Positions 5,116 through 64,000 of a stretch of DNA of 64,000 nucleotides are shown here, piece after piece. Numbering within the stretch: position 1 is the stretch's first letter; every line of letters starts with the position of its first letter. The DNA comes from a virus. The stretch lies in the UHGV virus genome UHGV-0042229, one strand, 5' to 3'. The notes under the pieces were generated by a model that did no database searches, was not told the DNA's origin, and worked only from the letters and a program-made list of their open reading frames with translations. The position numbers and the translations under genes are program-made.

Positions 5116-8103
5116 ATGAGCTTAAGCGATCAGGTGGTAATGGCCACCAGCATAGAAACGCTGATCGAGCTGCTAAAGAACCTGCCCGATTATGGGCGGG
5201 TTTCGTATGTGGTGACAGCGAAGGGAGACGAGGTAAAAACAGCGTTTGATATCGTCGATGCCTCAGCTCTTTTGGTATCCAATACTCTGGATGGGAAAAT
5301 TAATCCTGACTATCCCCAGGAACTTCAGCCGCGCGACCGGACCCGCGCATCCAGCCTTCTTCAGGTTAACCAGATATCCAAAGATTTGCGGCCAGCTCAG
5401 CTTACTGATTCCGGTTTATCCAGCCATGGTGCGCCGATAATTGGTGAGGACAATGCCGTTGAGTCAGGTAATGGACGGACCATGGGGATCATCAAAGCCT
5501 ATCAGGACGGCAATGCGGATCGGTATCGTGAGTACCTGATTGAACATGCGACCGAATTCGGAATACGACCTGAAAAGGTTGAATCAATGACGGCTCCGGT
5601 ACTGGTGCGCCGCCGGTTAACGAAGGTTGACCGTGTTCAGTTTGCCAAGGACTCAAATATTTCTGATCTCCAGGAAATGGCAGCCAGTGAAAAGGCTTTT
5701 GTTGATGCCGACAGCATAACTCCGGCGATGATGGCGCTGTTTAACCCATCAGAAAGCGGAGATCTGCTTAGCCGCAGTAATGACGCGTTTATTCGCGGAT
5801 TCATGACGCAAGTTGGTGCCACACAGGCTGCTGGCCTTGTAACGGAAGATGGGCGACCAACACGGCAACTTGTTGACCGTATACAAAACGCGATCTTTGC
5901 CAAGGCATATAAGGATGCGCGCCTGGTAAGAATGGTTGCAGAAGAACCTGATCCGGATATGCGTAATGTTCTGACGGCGCTTAATGCGGCAGCCAATGAT
6001 TTTGTCCAGATGCAGGCTTTATCAGGAGAAGCGCACAAGCAGGCTGTGACAACTATTGTTGATGGTATTGAGACAGCGGATAGTCTCGATAAAAAGGCGC
6101 TGGCGGCATTGAAAGATGCGGTAGACCTGGTAAGGCAATCGAAGGAGTCAGGCCAACATATTACCGATGTTATTGCTCAGGGGGATATGTTCAGCGAAAC
6201 AGCCCCGGAAGTGAAAGCTCTCGCGTTGTTCATCGTCGCGAATAACCGTAGCGCGAAGCGTATGGCCACCGCCTTTAAATTGATGGCTCAACGTATCAAT
6301 GATGAGTTACAGCACCAGGGCCAGGCGCTGGGGGATATGTTTGGCGGTGGTGATGTGTCGTTACAGGATATCCTTCGCCAGGTGTCTCAGGAACTGGAAA
6401 ACGAAGGCATGCAAGGGATATCCGGCGGTCTTTTCGAGTCCGTTTCCGGCGGTAGTTACAACGGTGTTGCTCCATATACCAGTTTGCTATTACATCGGGC
6501 ATCCGGCATCAAAGACATTATTCATCTGATCAGGCTGCTTTCCCGTACAGATCCCCAGGATGAACAGCTTGTACAAGTGCTTGCGCATTTTGTTCGAATG
6601 CCTGTTGCCGACGTGAATAAATGGTGCCGATTATTCGGTATCAGCAATTCGTTACTTCGCGGATTGTTAAATCACGCATCCTCCCTTGGGCGCGACGGCT
6701 TTGATGAGATAGCGCAGGCGATAAAAAACGGAGATATGCCACCAGCTATTGACTGGTTTTCCATTCGCCCAACCAGGGTGAAAGCATTCCTTAGCGCGGC
6801 GCATTCGGCATCACCATTGGCAGAAATGGTTCAGAGGTTGTCGCTCATATTCACAGACCATACCGCGTTGGGTGATTTGACTCTGGACGAGATGAAAGAA
6901 GCCTCCATTCAGTGGGCCGATCAACAAAATGAGGTTAACTCTGACTTCTTGCCAGCATTCAGGAAGGCCGTTAGTAAAGCTGATGATGCCCGTGGAATTC
7001 TGAGGGCATTTAAGGCATTGCAAAGTCAGGTTAATAAACATGTCGGTGATATCGATGGGGTAACGGCGGAAGGCAGGGATATCCTTAAAGAGCACGGCAT
7101 AACGCCAGAGTTTATTGATGAGATCAGGACTGATATGCAGCGTGAGGTCGTATCGTCCCTGCAAATCGTAGCCAGAGCGTTGGCGGATGCTAATCCGAAG
7201 AGTGCGGCCATTGTTAACCGTGTTATTGGTGATATTGAAGCATCGGAGGGCATGGGGGCGCTGAAACTCTTCCTTTCGCGAGCGTTTAATCCTAACGGCA
7301 ATATTCTCCCCGGCATTATTGGTGAGGCTAAAAAGTATGTCAGCGAAGAAGAACTTGAGCATCTTGACCAACTACTTAAGCGATTCTCATATAACCCGCA
7401 GACACGCTGGCAAATGAATCAGCAAAGTATGGGTTCGGTCCACGAGAAAGTGTTATCTGCCATGAACAGTGCGATCGCCAACTCATCCGTATCTGAAGAA
7501 AAAGCTCTTGAGTGGGCCGACTCTTTTATCACGGAAGAAGTGGAAGAAGCCCGCGCTGGACAGAATGGTGGGATAGACCTGCGCAAGGAACTTGCTGATA
7601 TTTATCGCCTGACCGGCGGTAAAATTTCGACCTTATCAAAGGTGGTTCACCACCAGGGAAGGGCATATGCAAATATTAATGGTGTTGTTGCTGTCAATTT
7701 GAACGATGAAAATGCAAGTGCACTGTGGCACGAGCTGGGTCATCATCTTGAGTACAGTAACCCTGGTTTGTTAGAGAAAGCCCGGTCATTCCTGAAGGCC
7801 AATGTTGAAGGGGATAAGCCATCTTTCGTTAATATCGGTGGGCGTGGCAAGCCTGAATGGTGCTTCAGATCTCGATTGAGTAATATTTATATGGCGAAGG
7901 TATACCCGCCAGCCTCAGTAAGTAACACCGGGAAAATTCGGCAGAAATCACCGACTATTTCCAAAACGTCAGCAACGGAAGTATTCTCTATGGCTCTTCA
8001 GTTGTATCATGACAAAGAGGCCGCTGCCGCATCACTGATGAATGGTGACGGATTGCTGGAACTGTTATTAGGTGTGGCAAAGGAGCTAAATAATGCAGAT
8101 TAA
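5116..8103 (+). CDS. ddrB: DdrB-like large head/antirestriction protein
   Basis: 995-aa ORF following darA/ddrA; P1 operon order. Confidence 0.5.
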   Translation: MSLSDQVVMATSIETLIELLKNLPDYGRVSYVVTAKGDEVKTAFDIVDASALLVSNTLDGKINPDYPQELQPRDRTRASSLLQVNQISKDLRPAQLTDSGLSSHGAPIIGEDNAVESGNGRTMGIIKAYQDGNADRYREYLIEHATEFGIRPEKVESMTAPVLVRRRLTKVDRVQFAKDSNISDLQEMAASEKAFVDADSITPAMMALFNPSESGDLLSRSNDAFIRGFMTQVGATQAAGLVTEDGRPTRQLVDRIQNAIFAKAYKDARLVRMVAEEPDPDMRNVLTALNAAANDFVQMQALSGEAHKQAVTTIVDGIETADSLDKKALAALKDAVDLVRQSKESGQHITDVIAQGDMFSETAPEVKALALFIVANNRSAKRMATAFKLMAQRINDELQHQGQALGDMFGGGDVSLQDILRQVSQELENEGMQGISGGLFESVSGGSYNGVAPYTSLLLHRASGIKDIIHLIRLLSRTDPQDEQLVQVLAHFVRMPVADVNKWCRLFGISNSLLRGLLNHASSLGRDGFDEIAQAIKNGDMPPAIDWFSIRPTRVKAFLSAAHSASPLAEMVQRLSLIFTDHTALGDLTLDEMKEASIQWADQQNEVNSDFLPAFRKAVSKADDARGILRAFKALQSQVNKHVGDIDGVTAEGRDILKEHGITPEFIDEIRTDMQREVVSSLQIVARALADANPKSAAIVNRVIGDIEASEGMGALKLFLSRAFNPNGNILPGIIGEAKKYVSEEELEHLDQLLKRFSYNPQTRWQMNQQSMGSVHEKVLSAMNSAIANSSVSEEKALEWADSFITEEVEEARAGQNGGIDLRKELADIYRLTGGKISTLSKVVHHQGRAYANINGVVAVNLNDENASALWHELGHHLEYSNPGLLEKARSFLKANVEGDKPSFVNIGGRGKPEWCFRSRLSNIYMAKVYPPASVSNTGKIRQKSPTISKTSATEVFSMALQLYHDKEAAAASLMNGDGLLELLLGVAKELNNAD

Positions 8104-57234: not shown

Positions 57235-60200
57235 ATACCCAAAACGTCATGAGCTACACCTCGAGTGTCCCCCTTACAAGACACAGAACGTCTGGCAAAA
57301 AGAGGTTCCACTCTGAAGCCACTGTCATGATAAAGCTCTCTGATGTTTGGCGCGCCACTGTTAGTAATGAGAACCTTTGCACCTCGACGATGAGCATCCG
57401 TCAACAGAGACACCAGGCGTTTTTGCTCTTCAAACTTAAAGTCATGACCGGAATAGTTCGTGAATCCCTCTGTATTTGGAAGCGGTTCATACGGCGGATC
57501 GCAAAAGATGACATCTCCTTCTCCGGCAGCTTCAATCACCGCTGCAAAATCACCGCATACAAACTCAGACCGCCCTTCCGCACCGAGGAAGGCTTCCATC
57601 TCCTGTAATGGGAAATACGGAGTTTTATACTTCCCATAACCGACATTGAACTCACCGGCCTGGTTGTAGCGCGTCAATCCGTTAAAACAATGTCGGTTCA
57701 GGAACAAAAACGCCGCTGCGCGATGTAAATCATCATAGACTTGTTTGTTAAACGCATTCCGTACTGCCAAGTATCCCTCCTGGGTGTTGTAGTCCAGGAA
57801 AAAACGATGTGCCAGAGTGATAAGTGAATGCTCCTCGCGTTGCAGAGTCTTGTAAAAGTTAATCAGGTCAGCATTCACATCATTTAGCAGATTTTCCTGG
57901 TATCCGGCATTCATGAAGACAGCTCCGCCACCGACGAAAGGTTCAATCAGGCGCTTCCCTTCTGGCAAATAGCGAAAGATTTGTTCCAGAACACCAAATT
58001 TTCCACCGGCCCATTTGAATATGGACCGTTCGAATTCTGCCGCTGGTTTAACTTTTCGCTCTTTTGTTTCACTTCCTTCTTTCTGCCGACATACGGCCTT
58101 AGTAATCCGATCGCCAATCCAGCGCATTACTGGTATTGCCATACTATTGCCGATCGCTTTGTAACGCGGTCCGTCAGCTGCAAGCATTGCGGCCTCTTCT
58201 TCGCTTAAATCTGGATAGTGATTGTGCAGATATGCCAGTTCATCTGAATTAACTTTTTTACGCTTTTCCGTAGGGATCAACGTATGCCAATCAGGAAAAC
58301 CTTGCAGCCTTTCACATTCGACAGGGGTAAGACGGCGCATTCTACCGTCGCCGAGCAATACAATTGGTGCTTCATGGTTACATGTCAAAGTTGGTGCCGA
58401 ATTATCGGTTTTTATCTCAGCCCCTCCTTGCCCATGTGCCATGGCAATTATGTTTGTATCATCGCAAGTTCTGATAGCGATGTTTGAAGTATATCTGGTA
58501 GTTTCCTTCCCCTCGCCTCTGCTCGGCGCAATATTCCGGCGCACGCCTTCGAACTCAAAAAGTACCGTTGCGGGATCGAGGTCTGTTCGAGCACTTGCGA
58601 CAACAAACACGCGTCGGCGTCGTTGTGCCACTCCGAAGTATTGGGCATCAAGGATTCTCCAGGCCACTTTTCGCTGCGGTCCATAAATACAACCACACTG
58701 CGGCCACTTTGGAGCATGGCAACCGGTTTTGACATCCCACCGCCAGAATGCGTTACTTTTTCCTGATTCAGGTCGATCACCTGGTTCGAATGGCGCATCT
58801 TCTCCAGCCAATCCGGCAAGGAAACATCCGAAGGCGTTATCTGCCGATGACAAGACTCCTGGGACATTTTCCCAGACGATAACGGCTGGTTTGAGAAATG
58901 ACTCAGCCCGTTTGTCGTCAATTGCATTTGCAAGCTCCACATACTTTAAAGTTAGCGCGCCACGCTCATCATCAAGCCCACCACGTAATCCAGCGATACT
59001 GAATGCCTGACAGTTATGGACCACCGCACCATTGAGGATATAGGAATGATCACCTTCGACTTCTATGTTGTATACAGTATCTAGGCCTACCGATTTAAAC
59101 TCTTTGACTGTTCGTAAAAGCATTCCATGAGCCAATCTTGATTTACGTGACAATTTCTGCGGGCAGATTGTTACCTGATAATAATTCCGTTGATTTACCA
59201 CGCGATCCTCAATCACTTTTTTGGGCTTAACTTCAATAAAGCTGACCGAAGAAACATAACCACAAGTCTGTGACAACTCCGCAACGCCCCAAGCAAGCGC
59301 AGGACTAACACTATTAATTCTAAATCCCGCTTTACCACTTGGTGTCCCATCAGTATCAAGATAGCCTTGTAAAAACACATGACGCAATGGATGCGACATA
59401 ACCCATGCAGGGATACGCTTAGCATGGCTTAACTCGCCAAAATGTTCATTAAGCCAATTGGCATAACACGTATCATTCAAGGTTACTTTGATGCTCCCTC
59501 GGATTTCGCTTGCCACGGAAAATATGTTTTCTGGTATGCGGCAATGAAACTTTCTCAATTTCTGGCAATTTATGCCAAAAACAACCGCCTTCTTAGATTT
59601 ACCTCTCCATCTCCTAATATATCCATCGCCAACATAAGCGCCCGCAAGATACATAGCCTGTTCTTCAGACAAGAACCGAGAACAAATATCTGGAGATGCA
59701 ATATTGAAATTAGTTAGAGCACACCATTGATATCCCGGCATATCACATGCTGCTCGCCATTCCGGTTCAGACAACAACTCTCTCTTAAAATATGTGCCAT
59801 TTTTCCGGGTGTTTTGGGCTTTCCACCGAACCGCCAGGAAGGGATGGTCATTGGTTGTTCTTATACCTAAAGGCTGCCCAACGGCATTAAGTAACCCCGT
59901 ATTAGCTATTTTTGAACCAACTCTTTTTACTTGTTGTAACCGCCCGAGATGACTGACTACGTAATCGCCAGGGCAAACATCTTCTATTGGTTTATAACCA
60001 TTTTTACAAAGAACCATATGCCCCGCGGTAAAACATGGTGTCCCTCCCACCAGCACATCAGGGGCTTCAATTTCTCCAGCCTGGACTTTTTGGGCGAGTT
60101 TTGTCATGTCGCCAAGGTTGGCGACATGGGGCCAGTGGTACGCAAGAACGGCAGATGGAAAAGGCTCGATTTCAGCAAACCACGCCGGACGCATACCCAA

Positions 60201-60266
60201 CGGTTCCCAGGCAATACTCGCGGCTTCAATTCCACTGCAAACAGATCCATAGCACAGCTCTTTCAC
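57225..60266 (-). CDS. dmt: Dmt-like bifunctional DNA methyltransferase (C5-cytosine domain with intein, plus Dam-like N6-adenine domain)
   Basis: N-terminal C5-MTase motifs [13 protein letters not shown]...[25 protein letters not shown]; C-terminal Dam-like [19 protein letters not shown]. Confidence 0.85.
59013..60035 (-). mobile_element. 341-aa intein with LAGLIDADG homing endonuclease inside dmt
   Basis: Insert begins CFTAGHMVL, ends GAVVHN followed by +1 Cys; [11 protein letters not shown] and [11 protein letters not shown] motifs; block B TTNDHPF; splits GGTP|CQAFSIAG. Confidence 0.8.
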
Positions 60267-61907: not shown

Positions 61908-62696
61908 ATGCTGGAAAAAGACTACCAGTTATCCGCATATAAAAAATTGGCCGCCGCCGGTGGGATGAAAACACCTGGTGCCATAACATCGGCACGAAAC
62001 AGTGCTAACACAGCAAAACTGCTTGCAGAAGAATTGACCGGATTAATTCTGGATACAATTGTCTATCCCGACACTATTACCAGCTATGTTTCAACGATCA
62101 GAACAACCACAACCGGCTTAACGAACATTGGAGAACTGGCAACTAAGCACGCGGACCTGTTGGCTGGTTATGCAGATCTGTCAATGCTGCTTCAACTCGA
62201 TATTGGTTGGGATGTTTACTGCCGTGCTAATGAGCGAGAAGTATCAGAACTGCCGATCTCTATTGCCATTGGTGACGCGACTACAACGAAATCGCTTGAG
62301 GACGCTGTAAATGCGCTTAATGCGTCGAGTTTAGTCGCTGCTATGGGTGACGTTAACCAGACCCTTAACACAGGCTCAGGAAGCTCGTCAGGCTCTGATT
62401 CAGGTGGCGGCGCAGTCACTCCCCCACCAGCACTGACAGAACAACAAGTTGAAGCACTGAAGGAAGCTACTGAACAATTTGGTGCTTTTTTCGACCAGAC
62501 AACAGTACCGGTAGCAGCATTGCAACAGCAGTATGAACGAGCGAAGGAAAGCGCCAGCGTAGCCATAACTGCTTATAACCATGCTATCGGAACCGCGCTG
62601 GCGGAAGCATCAGCAAATAAGGCCAGCACCGCCAGCGCAGTCGCAGCTTTGGTTCCTGATTCTGTTCTTGATGAATTAAACAAGGCGACACTTTAA
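61908..62696 (+). CDS. hypothetical protein with Ser/Gly-rich linker
   Basis: Start placed at MLEKDYQ after an AGGAGA RBS; GSGSSSGSDSGGG linker. Confidence 0.4.
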   Translation: MLEKDYQLSAYKKLAAAGGMKTPGAITSARNSANTAKLLAEELTGLILDTIVYPDTITSYVSTIRTTTTGLTNIGELATKHADLLAGYADLSMLLQLDIGWDVYCRANEREVSELPISIAIGDATTTKSLEDAVNALNASSLVAAMGDVNQTLNTGSGSSSGSDSGGGAVTPPPALTEQQVEALKEATEQFGAFFDQTTVPVAALQQQYERAKESASVAITAYNHAIGTALAEASANKASTASAVAALVPDSVLDELNKATL

Positions 62697-62735
62697 CAAA
62701 GGACTTCACAGATAATTTTTCTTCAGGAGGAAGAA

Positions 62736-63158
62736 ATGTCGTTTTTTTCAACGTTAAAAACAGCTTTGTCTTTGAAGGAGAAACTTGCTGTTACTGGTGT
62801 TCTTGTCCTGATTTGCGCACTTGTTGGTGCTGGGTTTGCATGGGAACGTTATCAGTTAAAGCAAGCCTTGGAAAAAATTGGCAGCCTTGATCAGGCTGTT
62901 AAGGAGCGCGATAAGTCAATCATTGATCTTAACCAGACCATTGAGACGATGAATAAAGCGGATCAACATTTTCACAGCCAGGAAGTGAAAAATGAATCAG
63001 AACAAGCGAAGTATGCAGACAGACAAATGGAACGAAAAGCTGAAGTTCAGAAACAACTGGTTGCGTCGGGTAGTGTTCGCCAGCGCATTCCTGTTGACAC
63101 TCAGCGGTTGCTCCGGGAGTCGATCAGCGAATTTAACGCCGACGCCGACAAAGGTTAA
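62736..63158 (+). CDS. i-spanin (Rz-like)
   Basis: N-terminal TM helix then coiled-coil periplasmic domain. Confidence 0.55.
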   Translation: MSFFSTLKTALSLKEKLAVTGVLVLICALVGAGFAWERYQLKQALEKIGSLDQAVKERDKSIIDLNQTIETMNKADQHFHSQEVKNESEQAKYADRQMERKAEVQKQLVASGSVRQRIPVDTQRLLRESISEFNADADKG

Positions 63159-63324
63159 TCACCCTGCCCCCAAAAGTGCATTTATGTGCAGGATGCCAGA
63201 GTTTAGCAGTGAATATTTTGATGATCTGCCAGCCTATATCCTTGATACAGAAACGATGCTGATGGGGATTAACAGGAAGAATCGCAACGTTAATGATTAC
63301 AACCGCGCTATCAGCGGTAACTAA
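62992..63324 (+). CDS. o-spanin (Rz1-like lipoprotein), overlapping the i-spanin gene in another frame
   Basis: Lipobox FLLTLSGC then Pro/Thr-rich mature region; true start probably internal to the listed ORF. Confidence 0.5.
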   Translation: MNQNKRSMQTDKWNEKLKFRNNWLRRVVFASAFLLTLSGCSGSRSANLTPTPTKVNHPAPKSAFMCRMPEFSSEYFDDLPAYILDTETMLMGINRKNRNVNDYNRAISGN

Positions 63325-63335
63325 AAGGGATTTTT

Positions 63336-63728
63336 ATGTCTGATAAAGTAACAGTAAAGCAAACTATCAACAAAGCGACTTCAATCTACAAAATTGAGCA
63401 AATCACTGTTGGCAAGCCAGGATCTGAACAATACCGTCGTGCTTTCGAGCTTGCCGATCAGCTTGGTTTAAAACACCCGGATTGCATTGAGCATGTATTT
63501 CCGACCTATGCTGATGAGCAATGTACTCATGTTCTTACCGAAGAGGATTTTTTCTGCACTGAAGAACGAGAAGGAGTTGATCGCTGCATTGGTGTGATTT
63601 GCTCTTCAGTGAGTTATGAGTTATTCCCTAATGTCCATGAAGATGGTGGTGTTGGATACCAATTCCTGTACGAAGGCGATGAGCTTAAATGTTATGAACA
63701 TGGTCTTCTTATCGAAAGCGTAGAATAA
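63336..63728 (+). CDS. hypothetical Cys-rich protein (UpfA-like position next to repeats)
   Basis: 130-aa ORF. Confidence 0.4.
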   Translation: MSDKVTVKQTINKATSIYKIEQITVGKPGSEQYRRAFELADQLGLKHPDCIEHVFPTYADEQCTHVLTEEDFFCTEEREGVDRCIGVICSSVSYELFPNVHEDGGVGYQFLYEGDELKCYEHGLLIESVE

Positions 63729-63882
63729 TACCCTTCCTTCCAACCGGCTATGTTGGCCGGTTTATTCAACTTATCCACAGCATAGATCCAATAAACAGAT
63801 CCTAAAGAGAACCTAGGAAGATCCAAAGAAGATCCCGGATCGCTGTAAGCCGCGTCATTACTGGCCTGAAATGGGATCAACA

Positions 63883-63989
63883 TTGACTATACGCGATTTT
63901 ATGTTGACTGTGCACGATTTATTGTTGACTGCACGCGATTTATTGTTGACTATACGCGACAGAAACATTGACTGTAAGCGATTTTAGAG
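63883..63989 (+). repeat. five 21-22-bp direct repeats (iteron-like), consensus TTGACTRYRCGCGATTT
   Basis: Repeat units start at 63883, 63904, 63925, 63946, 63968 with near-helical phasing; array may continue beyond the window. Confidence 0.6.
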
Positions 63990-64000
63990 TCTGAATATTC

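Follow-up and report, generated by a model that had tools for sequence, protein, structure and literature searches.

Five direct repeats near the right end of the DNA analysed here, a 64,000-nucleotide stretch of the viral genome UHGV-0042229 (the window), are very probably the origin iterons, equivalent to incC, in the oriR of a P1-like phage-plasmid (Punavirus) with a p0111-type replicon. This assignment was made because the repeats are non-random, occupy the position of the P1 origin iterons, are linked to the initiator RepA' and recur after its gene, and because their conservation pattern, the origin layout of the replicon family and the published literature agree with it. The first-pass annotation had suggested binding sites for a replication initiator or a partition protein, belonging to a replicon different from that of P1. 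Its initiator reading and its call of a different replicon are both supported: the array sits where P1 has incC, and RepA', 42% identical to P1 RepA, adjoins the array in relatives.

Sequence inspection located five direct repeat units at 63883-63986, with exactly the letters first quoted for them. Each unit contains a 14-bp core, TTGACT-RYRNR-CGA, on the plus strand. The cores are iteron 1 at 63883-63896 (TTGACTATACGCGA), iteron 2 at 63904-63917 (TTGACTGTGCACGA), iteron 3 at 63925-63938 (TTGACTGCACGCGA), iteron 4 at 63946-63959 (again TTGACTATACGCGA), and iteron 5 at 63968-63981 (TTGACTGTAAGCGA), which begins 22 bp past iteron 4, as in P1. A repeat search returned them as a single family of five copies, with start-to-start steps of 21, 21, 21 and 22 bp. 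Tandem Repeats Finder (TRF) reported a period-21 array at 63883-63959 with a score of 105; the 22-bp step caused it to miss the fifth unit. With at most one mismatch allowed, the pattern TTGACTRYRMRCGA matched five times in the whole 64-kb window, always inside the array and always exactly; dinucleotide shuffles averaged 0.70 matches and never exceeded 3, with 5 reached in 0 of 100. The claim of five tandem units at about 21-bp phasing is thus borne out by the exact letters, the repeat search, TRF and the shuffles. Where at least three direct repeats of ~17-22 bp in helical phase would mark iterons at an origin, the window has five units at 21/21/21/22.

Two details of the earlier description need correction. 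The array had been said to run to the window edge, but the fifth core ends at 63981 and the window continues for another 19 bp. No sixth unit is present in any full-length relative, so the array is complete within the window. The repeats had also been said to begin right after the last ORF. That gene, upfA, occupies 63336-63728, and 154 bp of origin sequence containing a hairpin, a DnaA box and a GATC cluster separate its end from the array; only a probably spurious 63-aa minus-strand ORF abuts 63883.

This intergenic sequence resembles the left half of the P1 origin. Its left limit is a terminator-like hairpin with a T-run after upfA (63740-63766, plus strand); the corresponding match in the relative L002, at 6442-6458, equals window 63740-63756 by the alignment offset and is followed by TTTATT. 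A perfect DnaA box, TTATCCACA, lies at 63771-63779 on the plus strand, 112 bp upstream of iteron 1, and aligns with the DnaA site annotated for P1 where oriR has its left end (protein_bind feature, 5471-5488 of the P1 record L003). Five GATC (Dam) sites in ~11-bp AGATCC-type units follow at 63785-63841, starting at 63785, 63798, 63820, 63831 and 63838, and the alignment identifies this cluster as homologous to the 'Dam methylation site 1-5 in the region of incC' of the P1 record. A sixth GATC, at 63875-63878, stands 8 bp before iteron 1; P1 lacks it, and the RepFIB-type relatives examined have one at -6 to -8. Both flanking elements expected of Rep_3 family origins, a DnaA box and GATC sites, are therefore present, as TTATCCACA at 63771 and six GATC sites between 63785 and 63878.

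By blastn, the last 8 kb of the window is 96-98% identical to P1, and the sequence identifies the window as a P1-like phage-plasmid (Punavirus). The homology to P1 and P7 (92-96% near its end) stops just before the array, placing the left border of the swapped replicon module at 63865/63866. In blastn comparisons of the window and of L002 with P1, the last homologous position is window 63865, equal to L002 6567 and P1 5572; this is 18 bp before unit 1 and equivalent to 16 bp before the first incC iteron of P1. With window 63300-64000 as the query, P1 matches stop at query position 558 and P7 matches at 574. The same query matched P1-like phages and 675 plasmid records. Identity to the nearest matches among phages and plasmids was at most 98.9% over 701 bp, and to E. 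coli complete genomes at most 97.3% over 2 kb. Identity of the window to the RCS47, SJ46 and 'P1' records remains 96-98% through the array. The right border of the swap lies upstream of parA, at L002 8818, equal to P1 7064.

Free phage-plasmids are not the only carriers of such segments. Window 62000-64000 matched 796 places in E. coli complete genomes, of which 42 are chromosomal, for example in strain ST2747, and P1-like origin segments are thus found in E. coli chromosomes as well as in the IncHI2A plasmid pHum4b. The latter carries a diverged upfA-oriR-repA' segment (581-2932 of NZ_OR724977.1) in a 291-kb conjugative plasmid.

The P1 record annotates its oriR as a DnaA site, five Dam sites, five RepA-binding incC iterons, repA and nine incA iterons, with the repA promoter embedded within the incC iterons. 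The incC iterons start at 5588, 5609, 5630, 5651 and 5673 of that record, giving spacings of 21, 21, 21 and 22, identical to those of the window array. They are annotated as GATGTGTGCTGGAGGGAAA-type 19-mers, and those of P7 are GATGTGTGCTGGAGGGAAA-like. The shared order in P1 and P7 is upfA, a DnaA box, five GATC sites, five iterons at 21/21/21/22, one or more DnaA-like boxes, rep, and a second cluster of direct and then inverted iterons. The window shares sequence homology with the left half of this origin, and the initiators are homologous as well (42% identity, with Rep3_N and Rep3_C in both). In contrast, the window iteron TTGACT-RYRNR-CGA is unrelated to GATGTGTGCTGGAGGGAAA, whose consensus has no match anywhere in the 64-kb window with up to four mismatches allowed. 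This agrees with the earlier statement that the repeats differ from the 19-bp P1 RepA iteron, and the comparison with P1 and P7 that had been called for alongside a tandem-repeat search gave the same answer: a period-21 array, whose units differ from the GATGTGTGCTGGAGGGAAA-like iterons of those phages. An alignment of the p0111 and P1 iterons was tried and set aside; by eye about 4 of 19 positions match at the equivalent register, MAFFT matched only TG..TG, and the two were treated as unrelated. Other differences from P1 and P7 are the single perfect DnaA box at the left end (P1 has two in tandem), the extra GATC at -8, and, in p0111-type relatives, an extra GIY-YIG/T5orf172 gene between the control locus and parA. 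No substantive difference was found from the p0111 replicon itself (PlasmidFinder reference AP010962; RCS47, SJ46 and JL22), which is very probably the same element type.

The rep gene lies beyond the window edge, and its linkage to the array is taken from relatives. In RCS47, CP059910 p3 and JL22, the array is followed by DnaA-like boxes with one mismatch and then by an 885-bp rep gene. The first six nucleotides of such a box, ATATTCACA, are present in the window as ATATTC (63995-64000, plus strand), where the edge cuts it; in relatives a second box, TTATCAACA, lies on the minus strand 11 bp further on (L002 6697 and 6708). IMG/VR was scanned by geometry alone, for three TTGACT-N5-CGA units 21 bp apart, and 46 loci were returned. 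Among those with more than 207 bp downstream, RepA' (85-100% identity) followed in 43 of 43, starting 179-180 bp after unit 1. From this offset, the start codon of the window's own repA' is predicted near 64063.

The same linkage was seen in plasmids. In PLSDB, the 135-bp array region alone is present in 399 records, RepA' at 80% identity or above in 398 (with nothing else above 60%), and the iteron-rep-control module, covered to at least 80%, in 397; judged from these matches, the linkage of array and RepA' is essentially one-to-one. Identity over the array region reaches at least 99% in 259 plasmid records and 100% in 17 of 30 sampled rows. RepA' is a 294-aa winged-helix protein of the Rep_3 family, matched weakly by Pfam Rep3_N and Rep3_C, as is P1 RepA. 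Full-length comparison gives 42% identity with P1 RepA; with RepFIB-type initiators from plasmids of E. coli and Klebsiella the value is 45-49%. JL22 has a protein with the annotation 'p0111; RepFIB replication protein A', and the Rep downstream of the array in CP059910 shares 99% identity with it.

Two side observations concern the classification of this initiator. A RepA' variant, 85% identical to the common form, occurs in the IMG/VR contigs L022 and L033 with the same iteron core and geometry and a different leader, in which a perfect DnaA box, TGTGGATAA, lies on the minus strand directly after the array; from its sequence, this variant appears to be a sub-lineage of the p0111 replicon. 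In addition, PLSDB typing gives the MOB-suite label 'IncHI1B' to the replicon of CP059910, CP103610 and pHum4b, which goes by the name p0111 in the literature and in the JL22 record; this mismatch could mislead replicon surveys.

Conservation is concentrated in the repeat core. In 13 distinct natural arrays, comprising 65 units, the nine positions TTGACT...CGA are invariant, an invariance partly imposed by the search pattern, which fixes these positions in three of the five units per array. The five central positions vary almost only by transitions, such that R-Y-R-Y-R is retained, and the spacers drift; unit 5 of the window, with TAAGCGA, holds one of the rare transversions. Plasmid pHum4b was found by blastn, independently of the pattern. 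At 87.5% overall identity it keeps all five cores and their spacing, and its changes sit in spacers or central positions; we give it little weight, as the annotation shows three short hypothetical ORFs in its rep region, 59 gaps interrupt the alignment, and the divergence may be part sequencing error.

The core recurs on the far side of rep. In L002, directly after the rep stop codon, the 14-mer is found at 7652 and 7676 on the plus strand and at 7769, 7831, 7863 and 7893 on the minus strand, along with one degenerate inverted partner. A post-rep cluster in both orientations is present in L001, L002, L004, L005 and JL22. In P1 incA, three direct copies precede six inverted ones; the p0111-type cluster is arranged likewise, with about six copies against nine. 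In CP103610, this region (L005 2593-2830, compared with L002 7652-7906) has one 30-bp inverted iteron unit fewer, and the module measures 1351 bp as against 1381 bp. Such variation in the copy number of the incA-like cluster might alter the copy-number set-point. An iteron-like 14-mer, TTGACTATAAGCGA, also lies within the repA' coding sequence (L002 7369-7382) and is well conserved, being present in every relative examined (L001, L004, L005 and L007 as well as L002). Between the incA-like iterons and parA, p0111-type elements carry a gene with a GIY-YIG/T5orf172 domain (L002 7942-8751, L001 7941-8750, L005 2853-3536, and JL22, L007, 4220-4903), which P1 and P7 do not have. It accompanies repA', corresponds to 'gp57' of the JL22 paper, and exists in 810-bp and 684-bp versions.

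The same plan extends to more distant replicons. In E. coli RepFIB plasmids (for example pAA-09EL50) and Klebsiella IncFIB-type plasmids, the DnaA box lies at -107 to -120, GATC sites occupy the region between about -98 and -43 with another at -6, and five iterons with ~21-bp phasing and lineage-specific sequence stand upstream of rep. Their iterons, ATAAACTGTAACAAGT in E. coli RepFIB and TGTCTAYTGTRNGCTA in the Klebsiella IncFIB type, are unlike the window core, and RepFIB-type replicons reside on conjugative or large plasmids, whereas that of the window sits in a phage-plasmid backbone. The Klebsiella replicon, p0111 and P1 share pieces of the GATC half at the sequence level, AGATCCCGGATCGCTG among them. 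Judged by these comparisons, the origin layout is family-wide, covering P1, p0111 and the RepFIB/IncFIB type. The conserved GATC half, taken with the point at which P1 homology ends, places the left swap border inside oriR, between its host-factor and initiator-specific halves.

The replicon swap itself is already published, and the p0111 type, of which this is the standard origin array, is catalogued and occurs in hundreds of sequenced elements. P1-like phage-plasmids carry either the IncY repA or the p0111 repA', and in JL22 repA' and gp57 stand in place of repA (PMC9603915). The RepA proteins of SJ46 and RCS47 have been reported as 42% identical to P1 RepA (PMC5241659). A study of Salmonella counted 132 p0111 and 94 IncY elements, inferred ~17 switches, suggested that coexistence of the two types is possible, and cited AP010962 as the PlasmidFinder p0111 reference (PMC11165635). 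The p0111 repA has also served as a screening target (bioRxiv preprint 10.1101/2025.09.12.675607, 2025). Iterons are not mentioned in these four reports. The iteron core string had no match in the searchable full-text literature, and, within that literature, the iteron sequence seems to be the only element not spelled out before. Nor did the searchable literature return binding, replication or incompatibility experiments on the p0111-type replicon.

For the function of the array we draw on P1. In P1 oriR, RepA monomers bind phased iterons, and opening requires DnaA together with Dam methylation of the GATC sites. The embedded repA promoter is repressed when the iterons are occupied, and the incA iterons keep copy number down through titration and handcuffing. 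From this precedent we infer RepA' binding, autoregulation, handcuffing and compatibility with IncY for the p0111-type replicon. Monomers of the p0111-type RepA' would bind the five helically phased units and would open the origin for theta replication in concert with the Dam-methylated GATC cluster on the left and with DnaA of the host at the flanking boxes. Occupancy of the array would probably also repress the repA' promoter, and the cluster after repA' (two direct and at least four inverted copies in relatives) would control copy number by titration or handcuffing. A scan with the sigma-70 consensus found no plus-strand site for the repA' promoter in or beside the array, and inspection by eye gave no convincing -35/-10 pair; the scan's three matches in total, compared with 3.1 expected from shuffles, lie on the minus strand. 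Autoregulation is therefore proposed by analogy only. As iterons and initiator are both unlike those of P1, the incompatibility group should be distinct from IncY.

Three other explanations of the array were weighed. The partition-protein alternative raised in the first-pass annotation would make it a centromere-like site of the parS type, to which ParB or some other partition protein binds. Centromeres can take the form of tandem direct repeats close to a par operon, and relatives have parA and parB ~2.3 kb to the right of the array. We nevertheless consider this reading highly improbable. In P1/P7 parS, box A heptamers (ATTTCAC) and box B hexamers (TCGCCA) surround an IHF site; neither box is present in 63866-64000. 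In P1 and P7, parS is downstream of parB, whereas the array is upstream of rep, exactly at the incC position, and rep, the second iteron cluster and the GIY-YIG gene stand between the array and parA. Moreover, parAB of L002 are 99% P1-like despite the swapped repeats and rep, such that the repeats co-vary with rep and not with par.

A promoter or operator role, suggested by the -35-like TTGACT that begins each unit and fits five of six positions of the consensus, is plausible as a secondary function, given that the P1 repA promoter is embedded in incC. As the main function it is very unlikely: the scan gave no plus-strand promoter and matches at the shuffle level, and inverted copies downstream of rep suit a control locus rather than a promoter. 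The same low probability covers a functionless tandem duplication, against which stand the strict conservation of cores while spacers drift and the perfect linkage to one Rep lineage. The array could also, in principle, be the native iterons of an ordinary P1 RepA (IncY) whose consensus had been misstated, an outcome that the first-pass annotation had itself named as fatal to its proposal. The surrounding 8 kb, 96-98% identical to P1, and the unit number and spacing, equal to those of incC, would fit such an origin, but we regard this reading as refuted and its chance as negligible. The annotated iterons of P1 and P7 are of the GATGTGTGCTGGAGGGAAA kind, which the window lacks at up to four mismatches, P1 homology stops at 63865, and in no relative with the same array is the adjacent gene P1 RepA, the neighbour being only 42% identical to it.

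Reading the array as p0111-type origin iterons, we offer a more tentative proposal, which we hold with rather less than even confidence: that the p0111 iteron code, with its invariant TTGACT-N5-CGA and transition-only R-Y-R-Y-R centre, may be undescribed; that the swap border lies inside oriR; and that the shared half-origin (DnaA box and Dam sites, conserved in P1, p0111 and RepFIB-type replicons) might serve as a homologous-recombination substrate for repeated switching of replicon and incompatibility group. The shared half-origin would, on that proposal, supply the homology for replicon swaps. Assigning the window to the p0111 rather than the IncY type of P1-like phage-plasmid aids replicon typing and predictions of compatibility with the IncY elements P1 and P7. 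Beyond annotation the result is of little importance, the explicit iteron consensus and the border inside oriR being small additions; both could help in planning incompatibility experiments, or in designing mini-replicons and vectors that are compatible with those based on P1.

Elsewhere in the window, the dmt gene differs from that of P1. The Dmt ORF (57225-60266, minus strand) encodes a Dcm-Dam fusion methyltransferase of 1013 aa, compared with 754 aa in P1 as calculated from the coordinates of the P1 record. A 341-aa intein with Hint and LAGLIDADG domains lies inside it (59013-60035, minus strand), at motif IV of the C5-methyltransferase (GGTP/CFTAGH...VVHN/CQAFS), with the Cys of the PCQ motif as the +1 extein residue. 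The 1020-bp intein insert is not found in reference P1 and is present in 133 plasmid records at 95-100% identity. In a second variable region, at about 58338-58521 on the minus strand, ~184 bp replace ~430 bp of P1 dmt, to which this segment has no similarity by blastn. Annotated lengths of dmt are 3288 bp (~1095 aa) for RCS47 and 2589 bp (~862 aa) for CP059910.
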